Below, in pieces: positions 1 to 60,623 of a stretch of 64,000 bases of DNA. The notes below the pieces were generated by a model. The model saw only the letters and a list, made by a program, of their open reading frames with translations. It was not told where the DNA came from and did not search any database. Both the position numbers and the translations under genes were made by a program. Where the stretch lies: positions 21,895-85,894 of the forward strand of contig CAZABB010000003.1 in assembly GCA_964483625.1 (NCBI GenBank). Direction: 5' to 3'. Numbering within the stretch: the stretch's first letter is position 1; each line of letters starts with the position of its first letter. Origin of the DNA: an uncultured Planctomycetia bacterium. GTDB taxonomy: Bacteria; Omnitrophota; Gorgyraeia; Duberdicusellales; 4484-171.

Positions 1-26
1 TCTCTACGCTTATCGTCAAGCATGCT

Positions 27-176
27 TTGGCGATAATAGGATTTATACTGGTGTTTTTTATTTCGGGGGGGATGATCTTTTTCTCAGGCCAAACCGGTAG
101 TCCTTACTTTTCTCTCCAGGGGATGGCGGGAGTATCTCTGGTGTGCTTTCTCGGTATGGTGGCTATATCTTCTCCG
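27..176 (+). other. N-terminal hydrophobic region of two predicted TM helices. Possible membrane anchor or signal anchor
   Basis: Translation reads AIIGFILVFFISGGMIFF ... GVSLVCFLGMVAISS. Confidence 0.5.
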
Positions 177-21100: not shown

Positions 21101-24100
21101 CACCCGTCTTATTCTGATCGATTTGATCGAGAAGGGAGTACTTTTAAAGGGAGACGTTCCTCATCTTTTGCGGAAAGGAGATAGTTTCGATAGTATCCAT
21201 ATGGCTACGATCGAGGGGGATACGTCGCGTGCGTTCTGGCGTACGCGCTGGCTCCTGCGGCGCTGGTATATCGTTCCCTGTTCGTGGGAGGACGCCCGGG
21301 CCGTTCAGGAAATCTGCCGTTGCGTTTCCACCCGGGCGGCTCAGGTTGCCGCGACATTACTTGCGGCGACGGTAGTAAAAACAGATCCCGATCTTGCCCG
21401 GCATCATACGATTGCCGTTGACGGAAGTATATTCGAAAAGTACCCCCGTTTTGCCGAGAAAATGGAAGAGACATTTGCGATACTGTTCGGCGAAAAGTCT
21501 TCCCTGATTACCATGAAACTTACCCATGACGGGTCCGGTATCGGCGCGGCGGTTATCGCGGCGATCGCGGTACGGATGGCTCAAAAATCGTCTTCGAGGG
21601 TATCGGCAGATTCAACGCCGTATCAAGCGGTACCGGGATTCTTCCTGGGAATATTCAGTGCCAATAGCTTTTTTATTGAAAGAGGGGACATCTCTTTCTC
21701 GTCTTCCGTATTTTTATATATTCCGGTTTTTCTGACGCTGACCGGTATGCTGATTGTGCTTTATCTGCTCTTGCGGTCCCTGTTGCCTCCCTTTTCTCCC
21801 GTTCCGGTCTCTTCTCCCCGCAGACCATCCCGTTCGAGCCGTGACGAAGGAGAAAAAGAAGGTTTCGTATCAAATATCACACAGCGGTGGTATGTGGTGG
21901 GCATCGGGATGCTCATTGTCATATTACTCCTGGCGATAGCACTGAAAAGCGGAGCGGTAAGTGTGTTCTGTTTTGCTATTCTTGGTTCAGTATTGACTGA
22001 CGGCGATAAGGTGGGACAACGGAAAAACGGGTATACCCTGATTGAAGAGGATATAGAAAAGATCGTCGAAGCCGCACTACATGTTCTGGAGAACACCGGA
22101 GTTAAAGCTGATGAAGGGTCTTTGCGAGAATGCTGGCGTCAGCTTGGCGCTCGGATAGATGAAGAAGAGAGCCGCGTGTTGATATCCCGTGATCTGGTTG
22201 AGTACGCTCTCGGGGAAGCAGCCTCTCAGGTGCGGTTATACGGAAGGATTCCTGATCCTGATGACGGTCGTAATCATGATGTGGTCGTGGGAGATGGAGA
22301 GGTGTATCACGGAACAGGAGGCAAATGCGGAAAGGTGATGGATACCACGGGAGAAGTGCGTGAAAGTAGATTAGCCGATTTATTCCATATCGGACGGGTC
22401 GTAGAGACCTGTGAACATCTTAAGTTCTACATCTCCCCGGTCAGCGCCCGGGATATCCCTTCCAAAATCGAAGCGGTGAACAGGTTCTATGTCTGTCTGG
22501 CGGCGACTCATAAACACGTGATGACCAATTGCGAATCGCTCGTTTTAGAGGATGAACCCGCCGGGATAGAGGGAAAAGACGGCACCGCTTTGGCTGTCGA
22601 AAACGTACGTGAAGTGATCGAGCTTGCCGCGATGATCGCGGGAGATAAAAAATCATTGCGGGAACGTCCGATCATTTCCTTTATTGTTACCGGGATTATC
22701 AGCCCCCTGTCGTTCGATTCGTCGGGGATGAAAATATTGGACGAGATACTCGACCAGGGAATTCCCGTGATGCTTTCTTCGGCCCCGCAGACAGGGACGA
22801 CCGGTCCGGCGGCGCTTGCCGGTACGCTGGTTCAGGTCTATGCCGAACAGCTTGCCCTTCTTACCTATATAAACCTCAAAAAATCGGGGTATCCGGTGCT
22901 TCTGGGAGGAATGCCTTCGGTAGCCGATCTGCGTACGGGAAGCTTTTCCGGCGGGGCGCCGGAATTTGCGATGATGAACGCCGCGGCGGTACAGATCGCC
23001 GGTTATCTGAAGCTTCCGATCTGTGTCTCGGGAGGGATGCCGGACACAAAAGTCCTCGATTGTCAGGACGGATATGAGGAGACCTTGCGGATGTGGACCG
23101 CATTTTCCAACGGTTGCGCCCTCCGGCATGCCGGACTGATAGAGGGTGGGCTTACGGCTTCATATTCCCAGTATCTGCTTGATGATGAAATGATTGGCCT
23201 CCTTGTCCGGATAAGACGGGGAATTCAGGTAAACGATGATACGCTTGCCGTCGGAGTTATCGATGACGTGGCAAGAAGTTCCGGTCATTATCTAGGACAG
23301 GAACATACCTTACAACACATGCGTGATGGTGAATTCGTGTACCCGCGATTGATGGACCGCAACGCGCGTGAGATTTGGGAACAGTCGGGAGGGCTCACGA
23401 TGGCCGAGAGAGCCGCGCGGGAGGCGGATAAGATTCTTGCTGAAGAAGGAGGAATCGTTATCGATAGTGAAACGGACGAACGTATACGCGAGCGATTTGA
23501 TATACGCCTGCCGCGAAATATCGGAAAGCCTCTTGGAGACCGGCCGGTGTATATTTATATCGAACCATCGCGGGAAATGGAAGAGTGTCCGGAAAGGGTA
23601 GAAGATACCGTGAAGGTTGTAGAGCAGATATCCGGAGGGAGAATAGAAGTGTTTTCTTACGGCGATATTACCATAGAAGAGGTTAAGGAACTTAATCCTA
23701 CCGCTCTTATTCTGGGAGGTTTCTATCACAGCTGGGAGGATATTTCAGTGTCTTCGCTGTATAACATTCTTAAAGTCATCCATTGGGTAAGTATTCCTAT
23801 CCTGGGGATCTGCGGCGGACATCAGCTTTTGGGTTTCGCCTTCGGTCGGTTCTTGGGTGGAGAAGTCTTTGTCGATCAGTCGATCGTAGACGAAGGGACT
23901 GTCGTGGAAGGTTTTTATCCCATTACTCACGCAGAAAATAACCCTCTTTTTACCGGTGTTCCCCAGCAGGCCTGTGTGTGGTGTCATCATTCCTGTGAGA
24001 TAAAAGTAAAACAACTATCTCCGATGTTTACCGTGACTGCCGGGAGTGGGCATTGTGCCATCGAGGCGATCCAGCATCTGTATCTTCCGGTGTTTGGGGT

Positions 24101-27100
24101 GCAATTTCATCCCGAAAGGTTTAATCGGGAACATTCCTATGGGAAGAAGGTATTAGAGAACTTCTTTTTTCTGGCGGAGAGGTATCGCAATATCAATGCT
24201 GGTCTTCAGGTCGGCTACCGTCAGGGGGGGCGTATTTTTGTGAAGCTGTTCACAATGCGCACCTATGCCTTTTTATTGCGGCGATGGCGTAGAATAAAAA
24301 CCTGCATACATATCGTCCGTCCTCGTATCGTCGATACAATACATAAAATAACGCAGGGATATTCACAGTGTTCTCAGAAACTTAAAGATGTTTTAGGGAA
24401 GCGCTTCCGGGTGTTCAAGAGATATGTAGCCCTTTCCGGCAAACGTACGGATTTGTCCCAGAGGGATGATTGGAATCGTTTGTATCAGGGATTGGCATTA
24501 TTGGGATTGTTAAATATAGATTCTGATACCGGACGTCCGGTATTGGTGCAGGAGTTGAGAAAACAAGGCACATCGATCCAGGATGTTCATATTCTCCTTT
24601 ATGTCACGATTATGTACGGATTGATCAGAGGAAACGTGACTGCCAGTGATGGAGAAGGGAACTTTGTCATGCAGAGTGCTCTAAGCCGGCATCCGGCGAT
24701 CGCCGAAAGATTACTCGTCTACATTCATGCCCGGTTTCATTATATTGCCGAGGGAGACAACGAATATGTTTCTCAGAAGAGGAGAGATATCGAAACAGTG
24801 ATTGAGGAAACCGCGGGAGGCGATATCGTGTTGTTTCAGAACTATCTTGTCATGTGTGATGCTCTGGTGACATCAAATGCGCTTTCCTGGCGGTACAATT
24901 CACGGGATCCTCCGGTGCTGGTTTTTGACGGCCGGATATTGCCTCTGCCCGACCACAGCCCGGATATCTATCGGGTGATAATGATTCCCGACCGTACCGG
25001 AAGCATTTCTCTGGTGATTAAGACCGATGAGGTTTCTGCCGGAGGTATCCGTGTGAAGTTCCTGGATGGCGGTACTACGTGTTTGAACGATATCTTTGAA
25101 GAAGACAGCGGTCTGGCTATGGGAATGGCGTTTAAGGATGTCTGGGCTTCTTTGGTGAGCAATCCCATCCCTTATTTGGGATCAAAGACTCTCACCGTGT
25201 TGGCTCCTGATGCCGATATCGATAATGTACTTATCCGTATGGGACGGTCTCTCGTCAATGTAATCGGCGATGACGGCGTTTGGCCCAAGAACATTGCCGG
25301 TCCGGACATGAATTCCGCCGGGCATATTCAGGGGTTGGTCGATGCCGTACGGGATGAATACCGGCGGCACGCCGAATATGAATGCGCTCTGCTTCTTGGC
25401 GAATCGGGAGGAGCAGAACACCTAGTTGAACGTGCGTCTTTGGGAGAAGAATCTCCGCGGAAGAAGCTGATGTTGTACGATTTCGATGATCCCGCCCTGA
25501 AGAAATATCATGACGTGTTAGCCGGAGTCGAACAAAAACGGGGAAAGTATTTTCTGCGTGATCCGTTTATCTGGGCGATGCGCGAAGAGATTCTGGCAGG
25601 AATACGCCGGAATCAGATACGGCTCTCCAGCGGCTGGCAGGGATTGATGTGGTACATCGGGAATGTTCTCCGGCGGCTGGCTTCCGGCGACCCTACGCGT
25701 TTCGGTATACGTCTGCGGTTAGATCGAGACACCGAACGGACGCTCAACAAAATTATTGGTGTGGCGGTAGGAGGAGGGGCACGTCTCGAAGGTTCATTAG
25801 TTGCCGATGCCGATCTTGCCAATATTACCGCGTTAGGATGTGCCTATGAGCTTGTTCATGTGGTGCGGTATATGGTTGCCTCCGGAAAGGTAGAGCCCGG
25901 TGAAACTCTGAAACTTGCCGTTACCGGTACCGGTCAGGTCGGCGGCGCGATGGTTTCTCTCATTGAGGAAATAAACGGACAGTTGACCGGTACGGCCGAA
26001 ATCGCCGTTGTTGCGATCGCCGAGAAAGGATCCGAACAGTCCGGTGTTATCTATAATCCCGGCGGGTTTACTTTCGAGCAGCGTGAAATTTTACGACGTG
26101 CGCGGGAGGGAAGAAACGATGCGGTGCGAAACGGATATACCGTCGAAGCGATGCGGGGGATACTCCCGGCAGAACAGATTATCGAGGTTCCGTCCGAAGC
26201 GGATCCCCGTGATGCGCTTCTTAATGCTGAAGTGGAAGCCGATATCCTTTTTGCTGCGGCTGCCGGTCCTACGGTAACGGCGGAGAATATCGAGGCTTAT
26301 GCCGCGAAATTTCCTCTGGCAATCATCGCCGGAGAAAACAACTGTTTTGGTACCAACGCGTTCTCCCGGGCGGAGATTGAGGATGCGTTGCATCGGGAAG
26401 GTGTCCTTGCGCTGGAAGGAGATATCGGGAATTTCGGTACGGTATATATTGTGTGTGCTATGGAAGGATTTCTTAAACATAGATATTCCGTGCCGGAGCT
26501 GCGAAAAATATGGAGAGAGATCAAAGAACAGGCTCGATGTGATGTGGTTGAAAAAGAAGCGGGATTGATTCCTTTTATGCTCCACGTCAGTGCCGCCCGC
26601 GATATACCTGCCGGAGAGTTCCAGCGTACGATCGTCAGCGAAATGAAAGACGAAATCGTCCGCCTGATTGCGTCGTATGAGCAGGGTGAAAAGGAAGTAA
26701 CCGCGAAAGTTGATACGTTGATTCGTGACCGATTACGTGTGCCGCAGCATTCGGTCCCGCCTTCTTATATGCCTTTTGCGGTCGCCCGGATCTGGGCGGT
26801 GATGCAGGTTGCGCGAAAAGAAGTTTTTACCCGGTACCAGAGAGAGATATCCGACGAGAATATACAACTGCCCCGGCAGCTAAGCTGTGAAGAAGTCTCT
26901 CCTCCGGCGCGGGACGGCAAAGAAAAGCTTCTCGTCCAAAGAATTGTCCGGGCGAAGCAGAAACTTCTTTGTGTGTGGCGAAGAATAAAGAGCCTGTTGG
27001 TGTATGGGAAGAATAAAGGGGTGGGTATCATTACCCGGTTGAAATACGGCAGTGTGCTTATGGTTTTGCGGATAGTACGATATGGTACTGCGCGTCGTCT

Positions 27101-30100
27101 TGCTCAGCGGACCAGAAACGTCGTTCATATGGGGGCAGGCGTGCTGCCGCCGGAAAACCGGTACGCGCCGCTTTCCCGAAAAGAAATCCGAAAAATTGTT
27201 GCGGCTTCTTTAGAAATACTCGAAACCGTGGGGATGGAGGTCCCCGGAGATTCTCTGGGGATCTGGGAAAAAGCGGGTGCGAGAATCGATATCGATCGTA
27301 ATCGTGTCTACCTGCCGGTATCTCTTGTATTATCGGCGCTTACTTCTGCGCCCTCGCGGGTGGTTCTGTATTCACGGACAGCTGAAAATGAGGGGGTAAT
27401 TGTTGATGAGAATCATACGTCTTTCGGGAGCGGCGGCCAAGCGGTAAAAGTGGTGAAAGAAGAAGGGGGGGTACGGGAAAGTACCCTGGAGGATATTTTC
27501 CATATCGGCCGGATTGTCGACGAGCTTGAACAGATTCATTTCTATCTGCGGCCGGTAGAGGCGCAGGATGTTCCCGAAGCCGAACGTGATTTGAATGCCT
27601 ATTACGCCTGCTTAGCCGCGACGCAGAAACATGTGATGGGAGCTTGTTCTTCGGCGGAGAGCGTAAGACAGGTGGTGGAATTGGCTTCTTATATTGCCGG
27701 GGACAAGGAAGTGTTACGTGAGCGTCCCTTTATTTCGTTCACTACTTGTTGTGTCGAACACCCGCTTAAATTCAATCCCTATGTACTGGACATACTAAGG
27801 GAAATTATTGCCGCAGAACTCCCGGTCGTACTTTCTGCCGCACCCCAGCCGGGGGTGACCGCTCCCATCACATTGGCGGCGACTCTGGCTCAGGTGTATG
27901 CGGAGTTGTTCGGATCTCTTACGTATGTACATCTGCTTCGTCCCGGCCATCCGGCGTTGATTGGCGCGACCTTATTTACCAGCGATATCAGGAGCATGGG
28001 AACATGTGCCGGGTCAATTGAAGCCGCGGTATTGAACGCCGGTGCCGTGCAAATCGCCAATTATTTGAAATTACCGCTTTACACTACGGCGGGGGTTACT
28101 GAAAGTAAGCTTCCCGATGATGCTCAGGCGGCAATGGAATCGGAATCGACGCGGACGCTGGTAAGTCTCGCGGGAGGAAGTTTGGTCCATCATGCGGCCG
28201 GTATGCTTGAGACATTGCTTACCGTAGCCCCCATAAAGTATGTGCTTGATAACGAAGGAATTGCACGCATAGTACGTCTGACGCGGGGGGTTAGTGTTAA
28301 CGATGAAACACTGGCGTTGCCGGTGATCGCCGAAGCCGCCGAAGCCGGCGATACATTTGTCTTTATGGCCGGAGACCACACTCAGTCTTATATGCGCACC
28401 GAGCTTGATCTGCCCGGCCCGGCTATTGATCGAAATGCTCGTGAACAATGGAGTGCCGCGGGAGGATCAAGTGCGGGACAACGGGCGGACGAATGCCTTC
28501 AGGGAATGGAGCTTCAACCAGAGGGAACGTATATACCTGATGAGGTCGATCGCTTATTACGCGAGCGATTCGATATCCGGCTGCCGCGAAATCCTGTGTC
28601 CCCTGTTTCTGAAGCTGCAGAGGCAGCAGATCATTATATTACCTCTGCCGCGATGTATGCGGCGGCGGGAGAATATCCGCGGTATGCCCGGCAGTTCAAC
28701 CAGACGGGGGATATGCTCAATGTGCTTGAGGAATATCTGATTGAATCCGGCAAAGTGACCGGACCGCCGTGCGTCGCCGAACGTAAAGATGGCAGGGTTA
28801 TCTGGCATCTGAATGTATTTCAAATTATCAATATATTACGCCGTCAGTATCGTCTTATTTCTATCCTTTCTCTGCTTATTCAGATTTTTATCCATGAATC
28901 CCGGCCGAATGAAGAAAAAGCCATCCGTGCCCAGATACAATATTACACGTTCCTTGCCCGCCTCTCTACCCTTCCGCCACTCCGGGAGTGGAGGTCGGGT
29001 GTGGTGAGAAGCCGGCCGGATCGGTTCGACTTGGCGCCTTCTCCGGTCGGTAACGTTGAAGTACATCCGACCAACCGCTGTAACCTGCTGTGCCAAGGGT
29101 GCACGTATATCGCGTGCGATCGCCGGGAGACGTTGTCTTTCGGCGCTTTAGATTCTCTGGCGCAATTGTATCCGTCAGCAATACTTATCGTCGGGGGAGG
29201 AGAACCGACCTTATACCGGGACGGGGATAAGAGATTCAATGAGTTCGTACTGCGTGTCAGAGAACTTCTTCCCGATGCGCATATCAGCCTTACAACGAAC
29301 GGGATTTTTATTCCGCCCGGTACATGGCAGGATCATGTCGGTTTTATAGGTATATCTTTGCACGGAAGTTCTCAGAGAGAGTATGAGGATTTTACCCGTA
29401 CAAAGAAAAAGGATTGTTTCGAAACGGTATGGCGGAATATTTTTGAACGGTATCTGCGGGACAGTCCGATTCCCACCGTGGTCGTGTCGTACGTCTACTC
29501 GCGGGATAATTATGAGAATATCCTGCCGTTGACGAGAAAGTTGTGGCAGGCCTGGGAGGAAGTGGAAGCTCAGCTGCGGGTCCGGGGAAGAGAAAAAGAA
29601 TTTCGTTTTGTCTTGCAGCCTTACGCCGATGATACGCTTCCCGCCGATCCCTATGCATATGCCAATCTTACCGGCCCCCAGAAAGAAGCGTACCGCAGGA
29701 GGCTGGAATCCATAGAGAAGGACGAACCTCTCTTCTGGGAATTCATCAAAAAGCACGCTTCACATGTGCGCACATATCCGTTGAAGGAACATAAAGCTCC
29801 CGGAGTGAATTCCTGCTGGATGGTCGCCGATTATGTATTGTTGGGCGCCGACGGCATTTTTTATCCCTGTTGTGTTATGGCCGCGGCGGCGCGCGCGTGT
29901 AATCTCGGCCCCGTGGAAGATGGCATTGATATGCTCCGGGAAGAACGCCAGCGTCTCATGGAATCCGTTCCTCCGCGCTGCCGGCAGGGATGCCGTCTTG
30001 TCGGTACGTATATGGGGAAAAAGGTGCGTGCCCATTTACGGAAATATTCAGAAGAACAAAGTCCGGGTAGCATGTATAATCTGGGGGTAACGGGATTGTT

Positions 30101-33100
30101 ATTAGGTTTGAGCGTAACGAATCTTGGTATGCCGCCGGCCGGCGTTATTGTTCCCGGCAGCGGCGCCCCTTCATCCGCCGGCTATGTAATCCCTCTGGTT
30201 GCGTTTCTCCTTGTGGCCGGTCTCATTGCGCTGGACTTTCTGATCTTTGAATATGAAAAGATACGGTCATTTATCCGCACGGTTACGGTGAGGGTGAAAA
30301 GGAATATCGTCGTCGGGACGGGGATTGTATTACTTATCTTCATGTTCGGGATTACCGGATGTACAGGGGACTCCGGACGTACCGATCCCGTTCCTTCACC
30401 GTCTTCGCCGGCCGTTGTCGGGGTGTCAAAGACGAAGGAGTTGAATGCGATGTTTCTCGTCGTCGACCAGGAAAGTGCTTACGCGATGCATCGGGTCGTG
30501 GGAGGGAATTGTGAAGACGACTGGGTTTCTACCTGGCTTACGTTTCAATGGGAGGTATTTCAGCGTTCGATACGGGAACAGTACGGTGTGGCACTTATTC
30601 TGCGCGATGTTGCCTGGCCTCCCTGTAAAAAAGTCAACGTTACCCTGGCTCAATTCCCCGGCGGCGTTCATATCGGCGGTGATATCCCGGAAGTGCGGGA
30701 AGTTATTGCCCGGGAACATCTGCCGGTTGATACGGTTATTCTTACCGTCGAGGATCTTGAGTGTCCCTACGGTTTAAATGCCACAGAGATTCAGCGCTGC
30801 TCCATGAGAGAGAACGGCAGGGAGATTGAGGTGAATCAATGGTGGCAAGAGGAACTGATCGAGCAGGGCGTTCTGGAAGAGATATCCGGTGAATCTTCAC
30901 TCATACCTTTACAGGATGATACTCCGCCGGTACTGCGCTCCTCTGTTCTTTCCGGATATCCGTTATTTGTTGAGAACACGCAGTGGCTTTTCGGGTGTTC
31001 TCTTCTCAATGTGTTTATTGGTTTGTCCCTCCGTATCCGTTCTTTTTTTAGAAATAAAATCCCCGGGCAAGTACTCTCCACCTTGGGGGAGGCCTCTTCC
31101 GTGACTGTAGGCGCCCTCCTTGCCCGGGATGTATTTAAAAAGTATCATTGCTCCGCCGCCGCGTTTTTGCTGTTTTTCCATTCTTTCCAAAGTATGGCAG
31201 GAGACGGCAGACAGGCGATCGGTCTGGCGCTCATTGGCTTTATGTGTCTGATCGGATTGTGGATTACCGTGGAGACGGTTTTGTTCGCCCGGAAATGGAT
31301 CTATACGATTAATCCGCAACAGATGCTGGAGAAACAGTTCATCGGAAAAGTTTCTCTGCGTGATTTTATCCGGTATGCCGCGCCGGTAGTGCTGATAGAC
31401 GTGATGAGTAAACTATCCGTCGTTTTTCTCACCGATATCCCCCGGACGGCCGGCGATACGGTGACCGCATCAACACCCCATATTGCCCTGGGAGAGTCTC
31501 TCTGGTGTGCCAATTTCCGTTTAGACGCGGAAAACTGGATGGGGATATCTGTAGGAAACATTCCCTGGGTTATCTTCGCGGGATTTTTTGCGCTGGCGTT
31601 GGGGTATCTTCTTATGATGTTCCGTTTCCATCGTTCCCGGAAGTTGAGGAACGTCTCCGAAGTCGGTTTGATAGTTATTTCTTTTCTGCGTATGCTTCTG
31701 TTTGTCATGGCCGGAACAGGTATTGCCACAGCCATCTCCCTTCAATGGACGATCCTTCCGACCGACTGGATCGTCTTTAATACGCTCGATGGCCCCATTC
31801 CTACTAATTTCGCTGATATAATCGGATTGTTCACCGTGGCGGTATGGCTTCTGATGTGGATAACTCTTATGACCATGGAGTCGATGGATCGAACGCGGTC
31901 AGGTGAGGGAGGAATATGCCGTCTCGTAAGCGGATGTCCCGTTTGTTCACCGCAAGAGGATTTCCCGCCGGGATTTTTTTACGATGAAATATCCTGGGAC
32001 GAAGAAGGTCAGGTTGAGGTTGATAACGTACTGTGTGATTTATCCCGGCGTCAGGCGGAAGAAGGGTTTGGTTTTCCTCATTACTGGGATCAATTGCTGA
32101 CCGTAGGTGAGATGTGCGAGGGAACAACGGACGTGAGTTTGAGAGAGCGGTATCGTCAGGCATTACGGGAAGAGGCCGAAGATGCCAGGATGGTCGAAGT
32201 AAAAGATCTGGATATGTTTAAAGTCATCAAAATACTCTGGCGTCCTCTGCGTCGTTTCGGGTTTCCCGGGACCAGACGGAACGGGCAGGCGGTCAACGAG
32301 GGATGTTTTATCTGTATCCCCAATATGTCCTCGTTACAGAGGGGAGTAAGAGTGGAAGGGGGATTGCCCGTGCCGCTTCGTCAGCCGGATGCGCCGTCAG
32401 GGCCGATTGCATCGGCACATCAAACCGTTTTGTTTCGCAAAGATGGTTTGATGTTAAGTCAGCTCGATAGGCCGTGGCCCAACGTTGTCTATGTTGCTCA
32501 AGGGGATATTCGGGATATCGCACGGTTTATCATGTTCATGAGAGAAGGTTTACGAAATAAGTTTCCCGCTGAGAGTCAAAGGAGAGGGTTTAACATTCTC
32601 TTTACCCGTGATCAGAACAGGGAGGTAAAAGTATTCTTCATCCCCCGGCGGAAATTAAAGCCGTCGGGATTCGGAAATGAGTTCGCCGCGTTTGAGATGT
32701 GCGGAATCATTGTACTGCATCGTACCGGGGATTTTATCCAAATGCAGGAAGAACATATTTATAACGCATTGGCGGAATGCGGGTATCCTCAGGATGAAGA
32801 CGGCCGCATGCGCGAGGTGTTTGATGATGCGGTAGCCGCTTTATCCGAAAGAGAGAGCGATGAAGAGGATTCCTGCGACACTGATTTTGCCGCTCTCTGC
32901 AATCCTTTTGCCATCGTGCCCCATCATATCACACTGGCTTCTTTATCCCACATTCCGCAGGAGCTCACGTTTTCTTGTCTTCTGTTTATTCTTCATCTTA
33001 CCGGGCATTGCCGCGATTTCCGTTTCTGTTTTAATTCTATCGACGGCGGAGCTTCGATCGAGAAACATCTGCATTTTCAGGGGACAGACCTGCCGTTTCC

Positions 33101-36100
33101 CGTCGAAAACGGGAGAAATGAAGCGATCGATGCTGCGCTGGCGTCAGCATCTTCGGATACCCCGGTCATGTACGGATTCGTCTTCTTCGGTCTTTATGGG
33201 TTTTTCAGCGGTACGCTTACTTTTCTTTTAAACGTTCAGACACTCACTAATATCCTTAATTTAACGGCGATTGTGTTGTTGATCTTTTTTATGGTTCATA
33301 CGTTGAGACGGGGAGGTATTGATTCCGATTATCGTTCTGCTTTCCTGGGGGCGCGTGGGATTTCGGCTTCGTTGTCTTCAAAGATACGTCCCGGAGAAAC
33401 GGCTCAATTGCAGGGGGCCGGTATCCTTACGGTCCATGTCACCATACGAGCTCTTATTTACCCGGTGGCTCTTTTTTACATCAATAAATGTGATATTTCT
33501 CCTCCGGGAGAATTCTCTCCCTTCTCTGTGTACATACTTATCCTGCGTAATGCCGTTGTTGTCCTGGCGTTGTTTATCTACGTTTATGTTGCCAATCGTA
33601 CCCGGCCGGAGGAGAGGATATTTGTCGACCGGGGCTACGACTTCGATACGTATAGCCACCCTTTCATTAAAGGCTTTGTGAAGATCGCTTCTCTTTATCC
33701 CCGTGCTACTGTCGGTCTGTTGGGAATCCTTGATCAGACGTTACAGACCGGATTGGCGTTTGTGGCAGTATTGACCCTTACGCCGGGAGAACTCACCCTG
33801 ATTCTTTTTTCTGCCTTTGTGCCGACAAAGATCCTGGCGCACTATGTCCTCGGTGAACAATTGACGTTAAGAAAAGTCGGCGGCGGTATTCTGGCGTTTG
33901 CCGGCCTGTTTATCTTTACCGTAGGGTTTGGTTTTGATTTGAACGTTCTGGAAATTGGGACATTGCTGGGTCTTATTTCGATGTCTTTGATCGCCGTGCG
34001 TAATATCCTGTATAAACCCATAGCCAATATGTATTCCAGTCCCTGGCTGACCTATATGCAGTTTCTTGCCGGTACCGTACTCCTGGGGGCGACACTGGCA
34101 TTTTTCCCTCCATTTACTCACGCTCAGAGCAGTCACATCTTTTCTCACTTTACTGATCTTCTGGCCGGCGTGATGTTAAGTGCCGGCATCATTGTTATTG
34201 CTTATATCACCAATCTGCTCGCTTTGCGTACCCTTAAGAGTTCTACCGTATCCATGGCACAAGTTGCCATACCGGTCTGTGCCGCGTTCTGGCAGCTGGT
34301 ATTACTTTCGATTCCTCTTACCCTGATTAAATTTCTCGGGATGCTTATTGTTATTATGGGGAATCTTATGAGTGGGATGAAAGGAAGTATCAGACGGTTG
34401 ATCAAGGATGCAGGTACACGTGTTCTTTCCCGGCGGGCGCGGAATTCGGTACATATGTGTGTTGATGTGTTCGTTTTTATACCGGTCTTTCTAGGGGGAA
34501 ACCCTTTTTCCGGCCCATTTTTTCATTTAATCGTCGGTATTTTTGTTTTTTGGTGTATAATAATCATAGGGGATTTTTCAACTCATTCTTCTTCCAAGAA
34601 CATATCTCGGTCCAGACAAGTATTCCCCGCATTGAGGGTGACCTCTTCCGTGGCTGCAGGTGCCCTCCTTGTCTGGGCCGTGTTTTCTCTTTCCTTATCC
34701 GGCCCTCCTTTCCCGGCAGATTTTCTCCTGTTACAATCTATTCCGTTGATTGGTATGCTGGGAGGAATCCATCATGTTATTCCGTCCCGTCCCGAAGATC
34801 TAAAGAAAGAGGATGTCCTTGAGCTGATAAGAGGTGATGGAGAGCGGGAACGGTTTACTCTCTGTATGGATCCTGTTGTGCCTCCGGGGCAGGAATATTT
34901 TACCAAGGCACGCATCGAACATGGCGAATATGTTTCGTTGACCTTTCCGGCTTCTTCCGCCGAAGTGGCGCTTGTTGAGAATGTCAATGCCGAAGGATTG
35001 ATTCATGGGGAAGGACTTACCGACGCCGCAGAAACATTCGTTTTAGTCTGCGATTGGATCGAAACCATACCCGGAGACGCCGAGTCAGGCTTAAAATTCG
35101 GGGAGTTGATCGGCCGCCGGGTAGAGGCACCGGAATACGCTCTGGCGAAATTTATTGTCCTTGTCCAGCGCATGGGTGCCTTGCATGAGCAGGGTGTGTT
35201 TATGAGAGAGGGATTTGGCTACGAGGACATCCTTGCCGATCGGTACGGAGATCCGGTTATATACAATGTAGAGTCGGTGGTAAAAACAGCTTTTTTCCCG
35301 GGAGACAAAGGCGGGAAGGAGTATGTTGCCTCTGACATCGCCGTGTTGGGCGACATGTTGACGTTGATCTCTCATAAACCGATATTACAGCATCCTGTCC
35401 TGACGCAATCGCGCCGGGAAATAGAACGCATCGCGTCCTATACCCGCTCCGGTACGTATGGCGATACGGTAATATTCATAAGTGACCTTCAATCGGCTTT
35501 GAAGACTCTTCAGGAAGCCCGGCTTGTATATGAATACGGCGACCAATGTGTTTCGGGCCTCATTCTGGATATCGATGGAACATGCGCGACGGATACCGGA
35601 AAGGTGTATCTTCCTGTGATGAAAGAGGTGGCGGCCTGTATGCAACAGGAAGTAGTCAGCCTCTTTGCCACGGGCAGACGGTTCCTCAACTGCCCATTCC
35701 TTAGAATTGTCCGGCAATTTCCGCAGGAAATGCGTACAAAAGCACGCTGGTCTTTAGGGAACGGCATGTTATATTTCGGACAGATTGAGGATGCCTACGT
35801 GGCCAGAGAGCAAGGTGAGATTGAAGCGGGACAGGAGTGGATATTTGCCAGCCACGATTACAGGTACCCGGATGAGGAAATGGAACGGCTGGAGGAAGTG
35901 GTGGGCCGGATGTTGGAGGATGTCCCTCAGCCGTGGTTTACGTGGTTCTGGTTGCCTGATGATGTCCATCCCTGGCGGTTTGCCGCAGATCTGCGTACGG
36001 CTCTTGCTGTTGCTGCGGTCACCGGTACGGTACATGTTTGCTCCTATCGGCGTGATCAGAGAACAGCGGGTATAAAGACGCAAGAAGATCCCCCGCTGTC

Positions 36101-39100
36101 CGCGCGAAGATTCAGTGAGTGGCATCGTCCCGGAGAATTGTCGTACGCGATTGCCATTGATCGGGTAGGGAAAATCAGGGCGCGAAATATATTGGCCGGG
36201 GAAGTCAATGCAGAAATTCCGGAAGGGAAGATCGTCATGATCGGTGACGGATATAATGATAAAGACGTTGTGACCGTATGGGTGGGAGAAATTGGAGAAC
36301 CGGTAAGCAACGGGCACGGCGAACCCGTCTACTTTGGCGGGAACGAAAAAGGGACCGCCCGGGCTTTGCACATTATCCGACGGGTAGCCCGACTGCCTAA
36401 CCCGTCATCCCTCTCAGGGGATGATCTTCGGGATCAACGCCATATGCACGTATTCGTGGGGATCCTTCTCGCTGCATTTTTCTTGCCTCATTTCGAATTG
36501 GGCCTTGACCGGAAATCTGCCGTAACTTTGTCTATAGAGGGCGAAGCGATGAGAGGGGATATTGTGCCCGCCGCCGATTTTGTCAGAAGGGCGGGAGCAG
36601 ACCGAAAACAGTATGCCGTTACTCCGGTAAAAGACAGCGGTGCGCTGAATGTCATGCGAAATATTTTCAACCTTTCCTGCGATCCGGTACGGATAAGTGT
36701 GATAAGTTGGGAACGATACCCTCTGTTTGTGCATTGTTCTCTTGCTCCGCGTGACGAATACGTGATCGACCTTACGCAGGGATTAGCTCGGGTTCCTTTA
36801 TATGAAGTATCCACTTCTTTCCCCGAAAAGGACACGATTTTAAGCGAGTGGCTTCTTTTTGAAGCACACATCCATCGACAGCGGATTCCCGTCGAACATT
36901 TGACTTGGGAATATATCGGCAAGTGGGGGATAGAAAGGATGATACTCTTCCCGGGGATATATCCTCCTAATTGTCCCTATACGTGGCGGATGATTGAAAC
37001 GGTTCTTGCCCGGCACCGGATGCAGGGAAAGAGATCTCTGGATCTAGGATGCGGGAGCGGAATCATCGCGTTGACCCTGACTTTGGCAGGAGCCCGGATG
37101 ACCGCTTTGGATATTGATCCTTTAGCTATAGCCAATACCCGGGCGAATATGGCTTTATACGGAGTACGCGGTGTCAGAACTTTCGTGTCGGACGCATTTG
37201 AGAATATACCGTCCGAAGACATATTCGATATAATCGTGTGGAGCAATCCTCCTCCGGTTTTTACAGAGGATGTACAGGTATACAAAATATTAGTCGAGGT
37301 AAAGAGGCAGGCGTATTCCCGAAATTGGCAGATTATCCAGCTCCGTCCCGAGCGGATTATTGCTCGTCTACCTCAGCCATGTCTGTATCCGGCTCTGGCA
37401 GCGATCGTATGCCTGTTGGTAATGCTGATGGTGTGGGGAGGATATATCCATTCTCTCGAAGGTACTGAGTATGCCTGGACCTCAGCCTATTTACCTCTTA
37501 TCCTGGGCAGTGTCGTTTCCACAAAAAAACATTATGGCCCCGCGGAAGTGAAAGAAATCGTCGAACAAGCGATAGAACAGATTGTCCGGTTCTACAGAAA
37601 GCTGTCGATCCGTCAGCGCAGTGCTTTAACCGGTATGCCTACCTGTGAACAGCTTTTCCGTTATTTAATTACCGGAGACAAGAAAGGGGTGCCGAAGGAT
37701 ATCGTCACCAACAAGCAGAAGAGTCTTATCGACGTCTGCCGTGACTACTGGAAAGACGGAGAAGAGGGAATTATTTCTTTGATGTTGTTTGCCGGTGCGG
37801 GAGGAAGTGGAAAGACCAGTATCGCCAAAGCATTCATTGCCGAAGCGAAAGAAGCGCTCAGGACGCTTGCCGGAAGATACGATATTGACCTTGAAAATTT
37901 ATTCCTTCTGTTTTCTTTCGACCGATATATTCTCCAGTACTCCGATAGAGAGATCGATCCTATCACAGGGAAAACTACGGAAAATCCCGTTAAGAAGTTT
38001 CAAATAGCCCGTTTCGTGGAAGCCATGAAAGCTCTTCTGAAAGGGGAGGTGATTTACGCGCCGATTTTCGATTTTAAACAGCGAGGCAGATTAAGGATCG
38101 GCCGGACTCAGAGAGGGGTGGCGATATATAACCGGAGCAGTCCTTCTCCCCGGGCCGCGACGAAATATCTGAATCGTGCCGTTATTACCTTCGGCCCGGA
38201 AGCGGTGCAGGTGGAGGAAGAGATATGGAATGAAGGCGCGGAAGAATGGATTCCGGCAGAATCGGAGGGTATCCTCGAAGAAATAACGCCGGAGCATTAT
38301 TCCTATGGACGGTTGTATCGTTTCGGAAGCATTTCCTGTGCCTTTCGCAGGGAGGAGAATGAATCGGCGCCGGCGCAATTGGTGATTCGTATCGCCGATA
38401 CCGATCATTACCTCATTCCGGATCAGGAAGGAGAATTTCAGGGAATACGCGTTGACGAACGCGAGTGGTTTTTTGACAATGAGAAAGACGGTCTTTGTGA
38501 GTTTCGGGAACGTGTTGACGCCCGAGGGAAAATTTTTATCGCCGAGGGTATTCTGACCCTGATTGATGAAGACCTGAATCAGGATGCGGTTTCGGTATTC
38601 CTCGATGCTTTAGAATGGGCACGTATTTTACGCATGATCGTACGTGCCGAAAGTGAAACGGGACGAAAAGGCGGAGTTGAAGAAGTGCTGGAAAAAAGAA
38701 TCACCCTGCTTTATACCGAGGAAGCTCCGCACATCTATCCCACCCGGGACATTGCCCGTTTTGTGGTGAGCACCCAGACCCGTTCCGAAAGTGTGTTTGT
38801 TTATTTTACCACCGGGGCCCTGCAGGAGCCCCATCGATTAAGTAACGAACAACTGGAGGTTCTGGAAGAATTGGGGATTCAGCCCGAGCATCTTGTCGCA
38901 AGCTTACGGCGTATGCATCGTGAACAGCTGGAATATCGACTGCTTAACTGGTGTCTGGCCTATCCTCCGATCGCCGGAAGTTCTTTCTGGGTGTTCCACC
39001 TGGTCGACCCCAAGTTAGAGAAAGAAGTCGGGATTAAAAACGGTGTGGCATGTATTGATAAAAGAGATTTATTAATGGTAAAAGTCGCACGGAACAGCGC

Positions 39101-42100
39101 GATTGCCGGGAGGTCGATCGAGGCGTTTTGCCGGTTTGTCGGCAATATATTAAAGAAACGGCTGGGAGGATTAATGGTTCCTACCACGGTGTATGATGCT
39201 TCGGCACTAAGACGGGTCGTGCAGATCCCGGGGAGGGAAATAGAGCTGGGTCTGGTTATTGTTCAGAGTAAGGTTGAAACGCTGAAAGAAAGAATAGATC
39301 TCCTTCTGGGAAATAGAGAGAAGATCATAACGTTGATGAAGGAAAGAAAATGGACCAGGGACGATGTGGCTGTTCAGAGGCAACACATCCGGCAATTGGA
39401 GGGAATCGATAGGGCCATGCGAGGATTGATCGATCAGTATTTTGGTTTACAGCGGGAGTTATGGCGGCGGGGCGTCATCGATGCCGATCCCCGCTTTATG
39501 GAAAAGTACGGGCTGATGCTGCTCAACGGCCGGGAAAAACTGGTTGTCATCGGTATCGACGGATTGACGATTGAGCCGGCCCGGTTTAATTCCGGCATAT
39601 ATCTTTCTTCGGATATACGCCCTGAGGGATTGCCCCGGCATATCGAGGAATACTATACGCGCCGGGCCAGGGAGGTTACCGCTGAATTTAACGAAGTGTT
39701 CAGGAAAGGGATGAATGAAAAACTCCCTGTTCCCGATGCCGCGGACGTTTCGATGCACGCTCTTTATATGCATCAGATCGTAAGTGAGCTTCGCCGTCCG
39801 AAAAAGAGGTTTTTGCGGGAAGGGTTTGCGCATATAGATTTCCGGGGTATTTCTCCTATATTCTTCTGGATCAAACTGTATCTTGATACCATGTATGTGC
39901 CGGGAACGTATCAGTATGAAATGATCGAAGGGATTTATGAAAAGATGATGGGAGAATACTTTGAAGAATTCATGCAGACGGAAGAAGACGCGGAAGTGTT
40001 CGCTTTGCTCTATAGGATTGCTTTGGAAGTCATGCGGGAAGAACGTGTCCCTCTGACGCCGATTACGGTGAACATGCTCATTCAGGAGTTGATCCAGTAC
40101 CAGCAGACAAAAAATCATTATGCGTTAGGGAACGGAGCGTTGATGGTCTCTTCGGATTCGGTCTTGCCGGGAGAAGCTGCCGACGATAATGAAAATGATG
40201 CTCCGCGGCAGCTTCGCTTGTTTAATTATGTACCGATCATGTTGATGATTATGTCGGGGGCTGGCGATGTTTTTCTTAAAGACGCTGCCAGCGAAGCATT
40301 ATGGATTATGTTCCTCGGCATTCTCACCGGTATTCTCATCGTCTTTCTTGCCGTTGATGTGGGGCGTATGCTTTACATCCGGAGTATGGGCAGACCATTG
40401 TCGACTATAGATCTGGTGCGTTTCTTCCTGGAACTGGTGGTTATCGTTGCCGGTGTATATATGCTGACGTCTCTTGCCTGTCAGTACCTGGACGGACTGT
40501 TTTCTCTGGGATTACTGGGGAGCGTCGTATTCATGGGGAGTATGAGTTCTGTAGGTTCGGTCACTCTCGAAAGAGAAGAGATGATCCTTCACGCCTTTGA
40601 AACAATGAATTTCCGCCGCAAGGCAATGCAGTGGATCCATGACAAGCGATCAGAAGATAATACGATAACCCCGGTGATTGTGGCCAATCGATCGTCGGGA
40701 TATCTATTTACCGCTGGTCTTATGGAGAAAAGATCCAGAATCGAGATAAGTAAATATTCCCGGGCGCTTTTGCGTAGAATAGTATTTTTGGAAGGGAAAG
40801 GAAGCTGGATTACAATCGCTGTGGTTATAGTAATTTTCCTGACGCGGGTGATGTTTGACCACGGCTGGATAGAAAAAGACACGGCGAGTTACACGTTTTC
40901 GGTGATTATTCTTCTGCCGCTAGGGGGGATTCTCGTGTGGCATGCGATGCTCTTTTTTCTGAACCGCGAAGATGGTGAGTATTTCCTTTGTGAGCGTTTC
41001 ATACCCAAGGAGCTGAAAGCGTTGGGAGTCGCTGATATCAGGGTCGTGACCGGGATGACCATACGTTCGGCGTCATACGAGAATGAAATCAATCGTGATA
41101 CGCTTCGCATCGAGAAGATTTCCCAAAAGGATTGGTATCTTCTGATGCGTAGAGATGTACTGCCCCTGGTGGTTGATGCTACCGCTCGTAAGGAGTCGAC
41201 CCGCCTGCCGCTTGCCTTTATGGGGTATCAATTATTTTTCTTTTTGAAGGAGGCGTTATACACCGCCCGAAAACGTGGCTGGGAGAACGATATGTCTCCC
41301 GAAGACGTATCATCTGTCCGTTTCGAATTTGACGGAAAAGGGATCTCAATCCATTGGGTTCTCTGGCCGGAGCCGGTTAAAATCGCTTCTGGATGGGCCA
41401 GGGAACTTATCGATGCGTACAATCTAAACTCCTTTCCCGAACAGGAGAAGGTCATCGATCAGGAGGGATATCGGATTGGGTTTGCCGGGGACGGTCCGTC
41501 GCGATCCGTAGCTTCCCTTTGGCAGGTTGCCCTGGAAGCCGAATTTCTTCCTGTTTTTATACAGGATTTCCGTCAGGGCAAACGGCATCCTTTCGATGAC
41601 GTTTCCGTACGGTTGTCTCCCTTGGGACGGGAATTGTTTGAAAAAACCTATTCTCATCACGTCAGTCATTACTGTAAGATGATATGGACTTTATGTTCAT
41701 TTATGGCTGCGGCCGGTTCAGGTGAGATGCGTAACGGGAGTTTCTTTGTTCTGGATATGGATGGTGTGCTTCTGGAGAGGAGGCAGGAAATCATTCCCTT
41801 CGTGTTGGAAGAAAAAATCGCCTTTCTCCTTTCCCATGGCCATACCGTTGTCATAGTTTCCCGGGCGGGTAAAGATACAATAGGGGAGAAAGTAAAGTAT
41901 CCTCTGAAACGATTTACCCTGCAATATCAGGAGTATTATCCCGGTGCGGTGGAGGCGTTGGAAGATCGCCTTTTTATTCTTTCCACAGAAGGAGGAGAGA
42001 ATAAGAGAGCCGTACTCGGTGAGTTTTTACAGAAACATGATGTGCCTGGTACGGTATTGATTATCGGCGATAATGAACATGGGCTGAGCTCGATTGACAG

Positions 42101-54735: not shown

Positions 54736-55065
54736 ATGGATGAGATTAAGTCAGTGTCGGATCTGAAATTCGACGAAAAAGGGTTAATTCCCGCCATTAT
54801 TCAGGATATAAACAGCGGCGATGTTTTAATGGTTGGGTATATGAATAAAGAGTCGTTACAGATGACGCTTGAGGAGAGGCGTACGTGCTTCTGGTCCCGG
54901 TCGCGGCAGAAATTCTGGCGCAAAGGAGAGACCTCCGGCCACGTACAGCGTGTGAAAGAAATATATTACGATTGTGACGGCGATGCTCTTCTGATCAAGG
55001 TCGAGCAGACCGGGGTTGCCTGTCATACCGGTCAGTGGAGCTGTTTCTATAGGAAATTAATATAA
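54736..55065 (+). CDS. hisI: Phosphoribosyl-AMP cyclohydrolase (monofunctional HisI)
   Basis: 109 aa. LIPAIIQD...[12 protein letters not shown]...[20 protein letters not shown]...[26 protein letters not shown] are all HisI hallmarks. Strong SD. Confidence 0.9.
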
Positions 55066-55285
55066 GGGATTACAGTGATTAGGATTTCGTCGTGCGCACC
55101 GCGCATCGCGTACTGCGTAAGAATACAATGATAGAGAGAAAATGCTAATACGCGTTTAGTTCTTTTGCGCGATACGTAATACTCAATACGTAATACGGAC
55201 ATTATCAGTGATCATCTGTATGAAGAGATTACAATGATCATTCTGAATGTGATTACGGTGATTAAAGACAGCGGTCATCTGCGGA
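55066..55285 (+). promoter_or_regulatory. Repeat-dense hisI-trpE intergenic region. Candidate operator/leader for trpE
   Basis: At least 4 copies of GATTAC[AG][AG]TGAT[TC], at 55068-80, about 55200-12 (degenerate), 55227-39 and 55251-63. Two copies of ATACGTAATAC, each with a palindromic TACGTA core, at 55172-82 and 55186-96. An 8-bp palindrome GTGCGCAC at about 55092-99. Confidence 0.3.
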
Positions 55286-56764: not shown

Positions 56765-56777
56765 ATGCAGTCTCTAG

Positions 56778-56799
56778 TCGACAGTCTATAGTATATAAT
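56778..56799 (+). promoter_or_regulatory. Weak candidate promoter upstream of rpsP
   Basis: TATAAT at 56794-99 with TCGACA at 56778-83. The spacing is poor. The leader contains AGACTAACGACTAA twice (56827-40 and 56848-61), then SD AAAGGAGG at 56871-78. Confidence 0.2.
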
Positions 56800-56883
56800 A
56801 AAAATACGGCATGTTTTAATATTTACAGACTAACGACTAAAGACCATAGACTAACGACTAACGACGAGTAAAAGGAGGAACAC

Positions 56884-57168: not shown

Positions 57169-57190
57169 ACCATAAGTAAGGAGGAATATA

Positions 57191-59636: not shown

Positions 59637-59694
59637 CAAATCAAGAAGCAACTTAATGCCTATACGTATCTCATCCGCTCTTTACTACACAAAC

Positions 59695-59719
59695 AGGTGA
59701 CACCTAAAATGTATAGTTA
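59695..59719 (+). repeat. 25-bp direct repeat, left copy
   Basis: AGGTGACACCTAAAATGTATAGTTA. It ends 2 nt before the transposase ATG. Confidence 0.9.
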
Positions 59720-59721
59720 CC

Positions 59722-60614: not shown

Positions 60615-60623
60615 AGCGTTGAT

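Follow-up and report, generated by a model that had tools for sequence, protein, structure and literature searches.

Can a lipoprotein signal peptide operate from deep within a protein, or does a segment that resembles one at such a position have another role? This question is raised by a site near 30.29 kb in the window (the whole 64,000-nucleotide stretch of DNA analysed here), which lies inside a giant open reading frame (ORF). An earlier note on this DNA had described the site as a textbook lipoprotein signal and had taken it to argue either for internal translation initiation with separate products, or for the fusion of once-separate lipoprotein genes whose signals now serve as transmembrane segments. 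The residues and coordinates that it gave were confirmed: a K/R-rich stretch precedes a hydrophobic core, the tetrapeptide ITGC and a Pro/Ser linker, and in-frame GTG codons are present at 30288 and 30294. The evidence assembled below nevertheless favors a different reading, in which the segment probably spans the membrane as an internal helix within a giant multi-enzyme membrane protein rather than marking a translation start or acting as an N-terminal signal peptide.

A giant ORF of enzyme modules and membrane helices

The site is part of a single reading frame:

3..54515, forward strand: giant ORF of at least 18,170 codons, with no in-frame stop before 54513-54515

Already open at the first in-frame codon of the window, the frame begins further upstream, outside the window, so that this codon count is a lower bound. 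Enzyme modules alternate along the ORF with clusters of hydrophobic helices. Pfam searches identified at least 17 distinct domain families, with matches to guanylate kinase, GH-like, NUDIX, hexokinase, GATase, GDH, MTTB, radical SAM, DUF4922, EamA, methyltransferase, GDE_C, Fer2, FAD_binding_5, MoCoBD, PEMT and Helicase_C. Between 23 and 76 hydrophobic segments were counted, depending on the hydropathy scale and threshold, and about 19 closely spaced helix pairs along the ORF resemble the TM1/TM2 pair described below. The idea that these pairs are copies of one repeated module was rejected, as the mean pairwise alignment z was 0.8 and that of the TM1/TM2 pair did not exceed 2.6. Rfam and tRNA scans of the window revealed no RNA genes.

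Giant proteins of Omnitrophota are known to carry many distinct enzyme Pfam domains together with dozens to hundreds of transmembrane helices (bioRxiv 10.64898/2026.06.07.730766; bioRxiv 10.1101/2023.11.21.568195), and the ORF matches these published "multi-enzyme" membrane proteins, which include "Archaeovorin"-like proteins and the class 1 "multi-enzyme metabolic clusters" (West-Roberts et al. 2023; Nielsen & Lui 2026). Like them, it is a single ORF of more than 10 kaa in which enzyme Pfam domains are tiled with none dominant, hexokinase, NUDIX, radical SAM, methyltransferase and glycoside-hydrolase-like domains being shared, and it has dozens of scattered transmembrane helices, mostly unique sequence and an ambiguous predicted topology. 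It differs from them in that the SecA_DEAD domain, which is present in most, although not all, of these proteins, was not detected in the ORF by Pfam, the only related signals being a weak Helicase_C match (26.6 bits) and a Hef-like PDB match (E 2e-7). Furthermore, the genes downstream of the ORF include hisI, trpE, rpsP, yajC and secDF, whereas pilZ and import genes are found at many of the giants (bioRxiv 10.1101/2023.11.21.568195). Seven other proteins encoded in the window have entries on an NCBI contig of 96,352 bp and on Logan contigs of SRR7048225, SecDF had no entry, and an exact 54-mer search of the GTDB species representatives gave no match.

Searches with the radical SAM, MTTB and hexokinase modules gave no evidence of a related giant gene. 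Relatives of the radical SAM module were limited to two standalone enzymes of ordinary length; those of the MTTB module, in GTDB genomes and JGI metagenomes, were genes at 27-41% identity over the best segment; and those of the hexokinase module were proteins 416-790 aa long, with no giant among them.

Anatomy of the site

The site follows the last recognisable cytoplasmic enzyme before a cluster of helices, a radical SAM/SPASM-like module with a K/R-rich stretch at its end. In order along the ORF, the features of the region are as follows:

29064..30026, forward strand: radical SAM/SPASM-like module (PF04055 at aa 9680-9833), with a CNLLCQGC motif
30081..30131, forward strand: TM0, a marginal helix, LGVTGLLLGLSVTNLGM; helical in a low-confidence model, Hessa-scale sum +5.6
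30192..30251, forward strand: TM1, a strong hydrophobic helix, PLVAFLLVAGLIALDFLIFE; KD 2.6-2.8, Hessa-scale sum -0.4, helix in the model
30252..30305, forward strand: K/R-rich loop of 18 residues, YEKIRSFIRTVTVRVKRN; 6 K/R, 1 acidic residue, pI 11.6
30306..30359, forward strand: TM2, IVVGTGIVLLIFMFGITG, comprising the h-region and lipobox residues of the earlier note; KD 2.4-2.5, Hessa-scale sum -1.3
30360..30362, forward strand: Cys10112 (TGT), the lipobox "+1" cysteine of ITGC
30363..30422, forward strand: Pro/Ser-rich linker, TGDSGRTDPVPSPSSPAVVG
30423..31214, forward strand: acidic orphan segment; with the linker included, 284 aa, pI 4.9 and 6 Cys

The site itself therefore reads RVKRN-IVVGTGIVLLIFMFGITG-C-TGDSGRTDPVPSPSSPAVVG, with the cysteine codon at 30360-30362, and it lies at least 10,096 codons into the uninterrupted ORF. 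TM2 consists of 18 uncharged residues, is helical in the model at low confidence, and is flanked by 5-6 K/R residues on its N-terminal side and by one on its C-terminal side. TM0 lies in a stretch of about 45 residues that lacks charged residues, and its insertion is uncertain by the Hessa-scale sum. The two in-frame GTG codons, 30288 and 30294, sit within the K/R-rich loop and precede Cys10112 by 25 and 23 residues, respectively. Because TM1 lies just 18 residues upstream, what had been described as the n-region of a signal peptide is the loop between two membrane helices. The next strong helix past the orphan segment is found at 31215-31274. Only one other Pro/Ser linker of this type occurs in the ORF, at aa 7249-7274, where it follows a helix (7232-7248) that has no cysteine.

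The segment downstream of Cys10112 proved to be an orphan. No match to aa 10040-10400 was found in a word-index search of 5.8 billion proteins, and none to aa 10085-10400 in an exhaustive HMMER search of 1.84 billion representatives or in a scan of metagenome DNA; nor did the orphan segment have a Pfam match at E<=10 or a PDB sequence match. A single-sequence AlphaFold2 model of aa 10005-10400 reached a pLDDT of 39.9, too low to support a fold search.

Lipobox matches and their chance level

Lipoprotein sites were scored with a PROSITE-type rule and helices were called with hydropathy scales. The rule (PS00013/PS51257-type) describes an n-region with K/R, an uncharged h-region and a cysteine 15-35 residues from the start. 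The site passes it only when a start is assumed at GTG 30288 or 30294, which places the cysteine at position 25 or 23 and R, K and R among the first residues. The tetrapeptide ITGC also fits the strict lipobox [LVI][ASTVI][GAS]C. This match carries little weight, because it is expected by chance in a protein that is very long and rich in helices. Strict lipobox tetrapeptides number 5 in the ORF versus 4.3 expected. The ORF has 7 core lipobox matches, whereas local shuffling gives 4.4 +/- 2.0 (P(>=7) ~0.16) and reversal of the protein gives 6. Three matches to the full rule compare with 1.6-1.8 by chance (P ~0.25). The combination of the full rule with a strict lipobox occurs once, versus 0.34 by chance, and at least one such match appeared in about 30% of local codon shuffles (P(>=1) ~0.3). 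Furthermore, among 13 helices with signal-anchor-like charge asymmetry, a lipobox is found at the end of just one. The lipobox at Cys10112 is most likely a chance match.

The earlier note had also pointed to weaker lipobox-like sites at about 10.95 kb and 51.73 kb, neither of which looks usable:

10968..11015, forward strand: second lipobox-like site, VFAAGSFFFVFLLGA-C3663 (Cys codon from 11013), judged from sequence and charge flanks
51735..51785, forward strand: third site, MWLLGS-C17243-FLACLILAGI (Cys codon from 51753), with the cysteine inside a hydrophobic helix and not at its end

At the second site, the helix that ends at Cys3663 is preceded by no K/R, whereas 4 are found among the 15 residues that follow, and the NUDIX module comes next. 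Cys3663 is probably on the cytoplasmic face and hence not part of a usable lipobox. A further boundary cysteine, Cys17536, has a C-terminal flank rich in K/R and is likewise probably cytoplasmic. Cysteines at hydrophobic-to-polar boundaries number 4 in the forward protein and 0 in the reversed one, and 3 of the 4 are followed by Thr and acidic residues, a pattern that was recognised post hoc. A recurrent G-x-C-T-acidic ending (Cys3663, Cys10112 and Cys17536) was considered as evidence for lipoboxes and set aside, being a post hoc pattern in which two of the three sites have K/R-rich C-terminal flanks.

Translation start signals

If translation began anew at GTG 30288 or 30294, a separate lipoprotein would be produced from the same mRNA. 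Two in-frame GTG codons do lie at a suitable distance from the cysteine. However, anti-SD pairing upstream of GTG 30288 and GTG 30294 amounts to -2.4 and -3.0 kcal/mol, respectively, which equals the median for 1,175 in-frame internal start codons of the ORF, as opposed to the strong AAGGAGG-type sites (-10 to -12 kcal/mol) at four of eight downstream genes. The sole GAGG directly abuts GTG 30294, leaving no spacing. A search for SD-like sequences upstream of internal in-frame starts, a check that the earlier note had proposed, revealed no enrichment along the giant ORF, and no promoter-like site was found near 30.2 kb. In addition, giant Omnitrophota ORFs are described as single-mRNA transcripts in work cited by one of the studies of these proteins (bioRxiv 10.1101/2023.11.21.568195). 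Internal initiation, the first of the two possibilities raised previously, is accordingly without sequence support, and we consider it highly improbable.

Gene fusion as a possible origin

Under the second possibility, a separate lipoprotein gene once began at GTG 30288 and became fused in frame, so that its signal persists as an uncleaved helix. This proposal addresses only how the segment arose and does not conflict with the internal-helix reading of present function. Standalone enzymes are embedded whole in the ORF: the hexokinase module and a standalone 451-aa hexokinase are 55% identical over residues 9-432 of the latter, and the MTTB module spans positions 4-490 of the 500-position Pfam profile. 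Judging from the hexokinase alignment, whole-gene fusion does occur elsewhere in the giant ORF. In favor of such an origin, the site also matches the N-terminal rule in full, with its two in-frame GTG codons ahead of the cysteine, and in-frame starts that carry SD-like sequences occur in a few cases immediately 5' of other modules (GATase, radical SAM and FAD-binding). Yet when vestigial starts before modules were sought as strong SD sequences with an in-frame start at most 120 residues upstream, about 6 were found versus about 4.4 expected, a difference that is not significant. At the site itself, the GTG codons retain no SD remnant, a comparable site arises by chance in the same ~30% of shuffles noted above, and TM2 belongs to the TM0/TM1/TM2 cluster and is not a lone signal. 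Because the segment after the cysteine has no homologue, standalone or other, in the databases searched, descent from a once-separate lipoprotein gene is not demonstrable, and we regard such an origin as unlikely, though less so than the other alternatives considered here.

Predicted topology and insertion of the helix cluster

A Sec/SPII lipoprotein signal peptide must be N-terminal, whereas the Cys10112 site is internal. The site does resemble such signal peptides in its K/R-rich n-region, uncharged h-region, strict I-T-G-C and flexible Pro/Ser stretch, and to this extent the residue string and the rule match behind the description of a textbook signal are real. It differs from them in lacking a ribosome-binding site, in having a helix 18 residues upstream, which the earlier note had overlooked, and in occurring at a frequency expected by chance. 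A related caution comes from Nielsen & Lui (2026), who suppressed signal-peptide calls on the later chunks of split giant proteins as a chunking artefact (bioRxiv 10.64898/2026.06.07.730766).

TM2 has the membrane-spanning hydrophobic length and the positive-inside charge asymmetry of a signal anchor. The positive-inside rule (von Heijne) underlies the behavior of internal start-transfer or signal-anchor helices of polytopic membrane proteins, and every N-in/C-out helix resembles a signal peptide in its n-region and h-region. What remains specific to lipoproteins at this site is the tetrapeptide ITGC alone. TM2 shares with start-transfer and signal-anchor helices a hydrophobic length of about 18 residues, a positive N-terminal flank, a nearly uncharged C-terminal flank and a short loop after a prior helix. 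The anatomy is the same, the difference being one of scale, as TM2 is flanked on both sides by soluble modules that are hundreds to thousands of residues long.

Charge counts in the TM1/TM2 pair point in the same direction, with 6 K/R in the loop versus 0 and 1 in the outer flanks. Between the radical SAM and DUF4922 modules, both of cytoplasmic type, an eight-helix model gives a K+R in/out ratio of 26:4, while a six-helix model gives 9:9. The eight-helix topology relies on the marginal helices TM0 and TM4, with Hessa-scale sums of +5.6 and +6.6, and a model built from the strong helices only would place the K/R loop outside.

We infer the following topology, insertion pathway and lack of cleavage. 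After the radical SAM/SPASM module, the chain would enter the helix cluster formed by TM0, TM1, the K/R-rich loop and TM2. The loop would be kept in the cytoplasm in accordance with the positive-inside rule, and TM2 would insert N-in/C-out, most likely via the Sec/YidC pathway. Acting as a start-transfer helix and remaining uncleaved, TM2 would begin export of the Pro/Ser linker and the acidic orphan segment (~210-285 residues), up to the next helix. The orphan segment is therefore predicted to lie outside the cytoplasmic membrane in this favored topology. Of the two explanations offered previously, only the clause about signals that now serve as transmembrane segments holds; the simplest reading, an ordinary helix with a chance lipobox, had been left out.

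The same N-in/C-out orientation would also suit a functional internal lipobox, in which Lgt lipidates Cys10112 and signal peptidase II cuts before it, splitting the polyprotein and leaving the downstream part anchored by lipid. The strict ITGC ends an 18-residue uncharged helix with a K/R-rich N-terminal flank, a Pro/Ser tether and then an acidic segment come next, and the favored topology places the cysteine at the outer face with a flexible linker next to it, the geometry on which Lgt and LspA act. Cleavage of giant proteins is an acknowledged open question (bioRxiv 10.1101/2023.11.21.568195), and a signal-peptidase-II Pfam domain has been reported in one 147-kaa giant protein (bioRxiv 10.64898/2026.06.07.730766). 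Nevertheless, lipobox counts are not above chance, 12 of the 13 signal-anchor-like helices have no lipobox, and the boundary cysteines 3663 and 17536, with their K/R-rich C-terminal flanks, are probably on the cytoplasmic face. Moreover, neither an Lgt nor an LspA domain turned up in the window, the sums for the marginal helices make the topology uncertain, and the term "internal lipobox" was used by no paper in a full-text search. We consider a functional lipobox at this position quite unlikely.

Internal signal peptides that are processed do exist in other systems. In Bradyrhizobium, the cytochrome b/c1 precursor FbcH contains an internal signal peptide that is cut by signal peptidase. Internal signal peptides of pestivirus and bunyavirus polyproteins are also cut by signal peptidase (PMC3113308, PMC7926653). 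As in these precursors, a signal-like helix within a long chain could mark a processing point; the difference is that type I signal peptidase acts there, as shown experimentally, whereas cleavage at Cys10112 is without support. We know of no precedent in which an internal site undergoes type II (lipoprotein) processing.

Implications

The internal-helix reading of TM2 implies that an N-in/C-out helix in a very long, helix-rich protein can resemble a signal peptide, with a four-residue lipobox expected by chance. The finding as it stands matters little, and the protein class to which the giant ORF belongs is already described. If the lipobox were used, it would mark a cleavage point, the first to be defined for any giant protein of bacteria; to our knowledge, a cut at Cys10112 would also be the first internal type II signal-peptidase site. 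Such a cut would bear on the open question of whether giant proteins remain one chain or are cut, and where. More remarkable is the ORF itself, a sequence-unique frame of more than 18 kaa that joins complete cytoplasmic enzymes and membrane helices.

Architecture of the giant ORF

The forward frame is open from the window's first base to a stop at 54513-54515, forming a single giant ORF of at least 18,170 codons that crosses the left window edge and continues upstream (residues are numbered here from nt 27). Enzymes that are ordinarily separate cytoplasmic proteins are combined in this ORF as a mosaic of domains recognized by Pfam.

Pfam modules of the giant ORF
plus strand, guanylate kinase, NUDIX and glycoside-hydrolase-like (alpha/alpha)6 domains
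20277-21548, plus strand, complete hexokinase (196 + 215 bits)
plus strand, class-I glutamine amidotransferase (GATase) and glutamate dehydrogenase
plus strand, MttB-type methyltransferase (558 bits)
plus strand, radical SAM
plus strand, DUF4922, EamA transporter, SAM methyltransferase and GDE_C
plus strand, 2Fe-2S, FAD and molybdopterin-dehydrogenase parts, PEMT and a helicase C domain

At 55% identity, the hexokinase module matches residues 9-432 of a bacterial hexokinase that stands alone at 451 aa; some of the top standalone matches are labelled Aminicenantes or Acidobacteriota MAGs. From this sequence a whole hexokinase gene was evidently captured in frame. Hydrophobic segments, numbering from 23 (Hessa sum <0) to 76 (Kyte-Doolittle >=1.7), are spread over the ORF, and between about 19 closely spaced helix pairs or triples lie soluble stretches 200-2,700 residues long. 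AT skew falls to -0.14 to -0.18 at 30001-36000, against about -0.03 elsewhere; this dip overlaps the helix-densest region (aa 10397-11560, which contains the EamA module) and probably reflects the codon composition of hydrophobic residues.

This architecture is that published for Omnitrophota giant genes, and the product is of a known kind, a giant multi-enzyme membrane protein. Nielsen & Lui described a class termed 'multi-enzyme metabolic cluster', found more TM helices in longer proteins, and reported giant proteins to be overwhelmingly sequence-unique (bioRxiv 10.64898/2026.06.07.730766). Pieces of the present ORF did not match even themselves in two large protein databases, and the product thus seems to be absent from both. 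The window's ordinary proteins are on record, seven on one 96,352-bp NCBI contig and six of these also in Logan assemblies (retrieved contigs from run SRR7048225).

Downstream genes

54736-59636, hisI, trpE, rpsP, then yajC-secDF (57191-59636), following the giant ORF
59722-60591, Y1 (IS200-like) transposase ORF, within 59691-60615
60624-62516, mfd-like gene of only 630 aa, directly after the transposase

Many Omnitrophota giant genes are reported to have pilZ and import genes downstream, whereas hisI, trpE, rpsP and yajC-secDF, the last encoding accessory parts of the Sec translocon, are found here. A 29-nt direct repeat (59691-59719 and 60586-60614; 97% identical) brackets the transposase ORF and also forms a palindrome half (60575-60594/60596-60615), and by its sequence 59691-60615 looks like a REP/RAYT-type element between secDF and the mfd-like gene. 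The mfd-like product has a UvrB-interaction domain at its start and ends shortly past its helicase C domain; canonical Mfd, at about 1,150 aa, is far longer.

The lipoprotein-like segment

At about 30.29 kb the frame reads AGYVIPLVAFLLVAGLIALDFLIFEYEKIRSFIRTVTVRVKRNIVVGTGIVLLIFMFGITG-C-TGDSGRTDPVPSPSSPAVVG, with the codon of Cys10112 at 30360-30362 and in-frame GTGs at 30288 and 30294; re-reading the frame confirmed the sequence and coordinates in the earlier note. The lipoprotein rule applied here is of the PROSITE PS00013/PS51257 type, and the segment matches it, along with the strict lipobox [LVI][ASTVI][GAS]C, when a start at either GTG is assumed. The earlier note missed a strong hydrophobic helix, PLVAFLLVAGLIALDFLIFE (TM1, 30192-30251), which precedes the 'signal' by 18 residues; what was taken for an n-region is the inter-helix loop YEKIRSFIRTVTVRVKRN, with six K/R and a pI of 11.6. 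Farther upstream, after the K/R-rich end of the radical SAM/SPASM module, a stretch of about 45 residues without any charge holds a marginal helix, LGVTGLLLGLSVTNLGM (TM0, 30081-30131). A low-confidence AlphaFold2 single-sequence model (pLDDT 39.9) has three helices at the positions of TM0, TM1 and the 'h-region' helix (TM2, 30306-30359), the last ending at the Cys. The giant ORF has two Pro/Ser-rich linkers, each after a helix, and the other (aa 7249-7274) lacks a Cys.

No homologue of the segment was found among 5.8 billion proteins (word-indexed search), among 1.84 billion representatives (exhaustive search), or in JGI metagenome contigs, Pfam or PDB. Searches with the flanking MTTB and radical SAM modules returned only distant genes or standalone enzymes, with no sign of an orthologous giant gene.

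Lipobox frequency

The lipobox core pattern occurs seven times in the giant ORF versus 4.4 +/- 2.0 in local residue shuffles that preserve hydrophobic blocks (P(>=7) ~0.16), and six times in the reversed protein. The complete N-terminal rule, which adds an in-frame ATG, GTG or TTG 15-35 residues upstream and K/R among the first seven residues, is passed by three sites versus 1.6-1.8 in local codon shuffles (P ~0.25). With the strict lipobox included, only Cys10112 remains versus 0.34 expected, and at least one such site arises in ~30% of shuffled ORFs. The lipobox at Cys10112 is not above chance; the earlier observation, accurate as sequence, was incomplete in context and statistically unremarkable. 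The other two full-rule sites were rejected as lipoprotein signals, Cys13485 being mid-membrane and Cys14355 within the soluble GDE_C domain. Neither of the weaker sites proposed previously held up: Cys17243 (~51.73 kb) lies within a helix, and Cys3663 (~10.95 kb) has no positive N-flank and a K/R-rich C-flank ahead of the NUDIX module. Because only one of 13 helices with signal-anchor-like charge asymmetry (N-flank >=3 K/R, C-flank <=1), that of Cys10112, ends in a lipobox, the giant protein makes no systematic use of lipoboxes.

Side observations concern the Cys residues themselves. The second helix of three close pairs ends in G-x-C-T plus acidic residues (LLGAC-TERDDD, 11013-11015; ITGC-TGDSGR, 30360-30362; AMGVC-TENESRE, 52632-52634); K/R-rich C-flanks are present at two of these sites, and the helix pairs are not detectably homologous. 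Hydrophobic-to-polar boundaries carry four Cys residues in the protein as encoded, against none in the reversed sequence. Both patterns were noticed post hoc.

An origin of the segment in a fused lipoprotein gene, of which it would be a relic, is unlikely, and this reading would account for origin only. Whole-gene fusion clearly occurs in the giant ORF, but nothing connects it with the Cys10112 site.

Translation start signals

AAGGAGG-type sites precede four of the eight downstream genes, with anti-SD pairing of -10 to -12 kcal/mol. GTG 30288 and GTG 30294 reach -2.4 and -3.0 kcal/mol, the median of 1,175 in-frame internal start codons, and the sole GAGG adjoins GTG 30294 with zero spacing. 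There is no sign of a translation start at either codon, no sigma-70-like promoter was found near 30.2 kb, and internal initiation of a separate product here is most improbable. Across the giant ORF, strong SD-like sequences show no excess before in-frame starts versus any codon; they precede 39 in-frame starts, about six of them no more than 120 residues before a Pfam module versus ~4.4 expected. In-frame GTGs at 23649, 29001-29004 and 44955 have strong SD-like sequences (-10 kcal/mol) and lie 7, 20 and 24 residues before the GATase, radical SAM and FAD-binding modules, respectively. On this sequence pattern, such GTGs may be remnants of former starts or internal starts still in use, but overall they are not significantly enriched.

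Membrane topology and interpretation

Radical SAM and DUF4922 are enzyme types that should reside in the cytoplasm. An eight-helix model of the region between them (TM0, TM1, TM2, 10397, marginal 10452, 10513, 10546 and 10596) places all K/R-rich loops inside (K+R 26 in, 4 out); with only the six strong helices there is no charge bias (9:9), and the +5 loop would lie outside. In the eight-helix model TM2 is predicted to be N-in/C-out, which would bring Cys10112 to the outer face and leave the 210-285 acidic residues behind it outside. Parity is uncertain, because two of the helices this model requires have marginal Hessa-scale values (+5.6 and +6.6), and similar topology uncertainty exists in published giant proteins (bioRxiv 10.1101/2023.11.21.568195).

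The geometry of this favored topology would suit an internal lipobox at which the polyprotein is split, and where giant proteins might be cut is acknowledged in the literature as an unanswered question (bioRxiv 10.1101/2023.11.21.568195). However, lipoboxes are not enriched and a literature search found no precedent, making such a lipobox highly unlikely. Where giant proteins had been split, Nielsen & Lui deliberately suppressed signal-peptide calls on the later chunks, regarding them as a chunking artefact (bioRxiv 10.64898/2026.06.07.730766).

Most likely the segment is an ordinary internal start-transfer helix with a coincidental ITGC, involving neither cleavage nor reinitiation. The positive loop would be held in the cytoplasm, TM2 would cross the membrane, and the linker would then run into an exported orphan segment. 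Of the earlier interpretation, only the membrane helix survives. A functional internal lipobox would, if true, be the one exciting reading. The likeness to a lipoprotein signal is the appearance of an N-in/C-out helix combined with a chance tetrapeptide.
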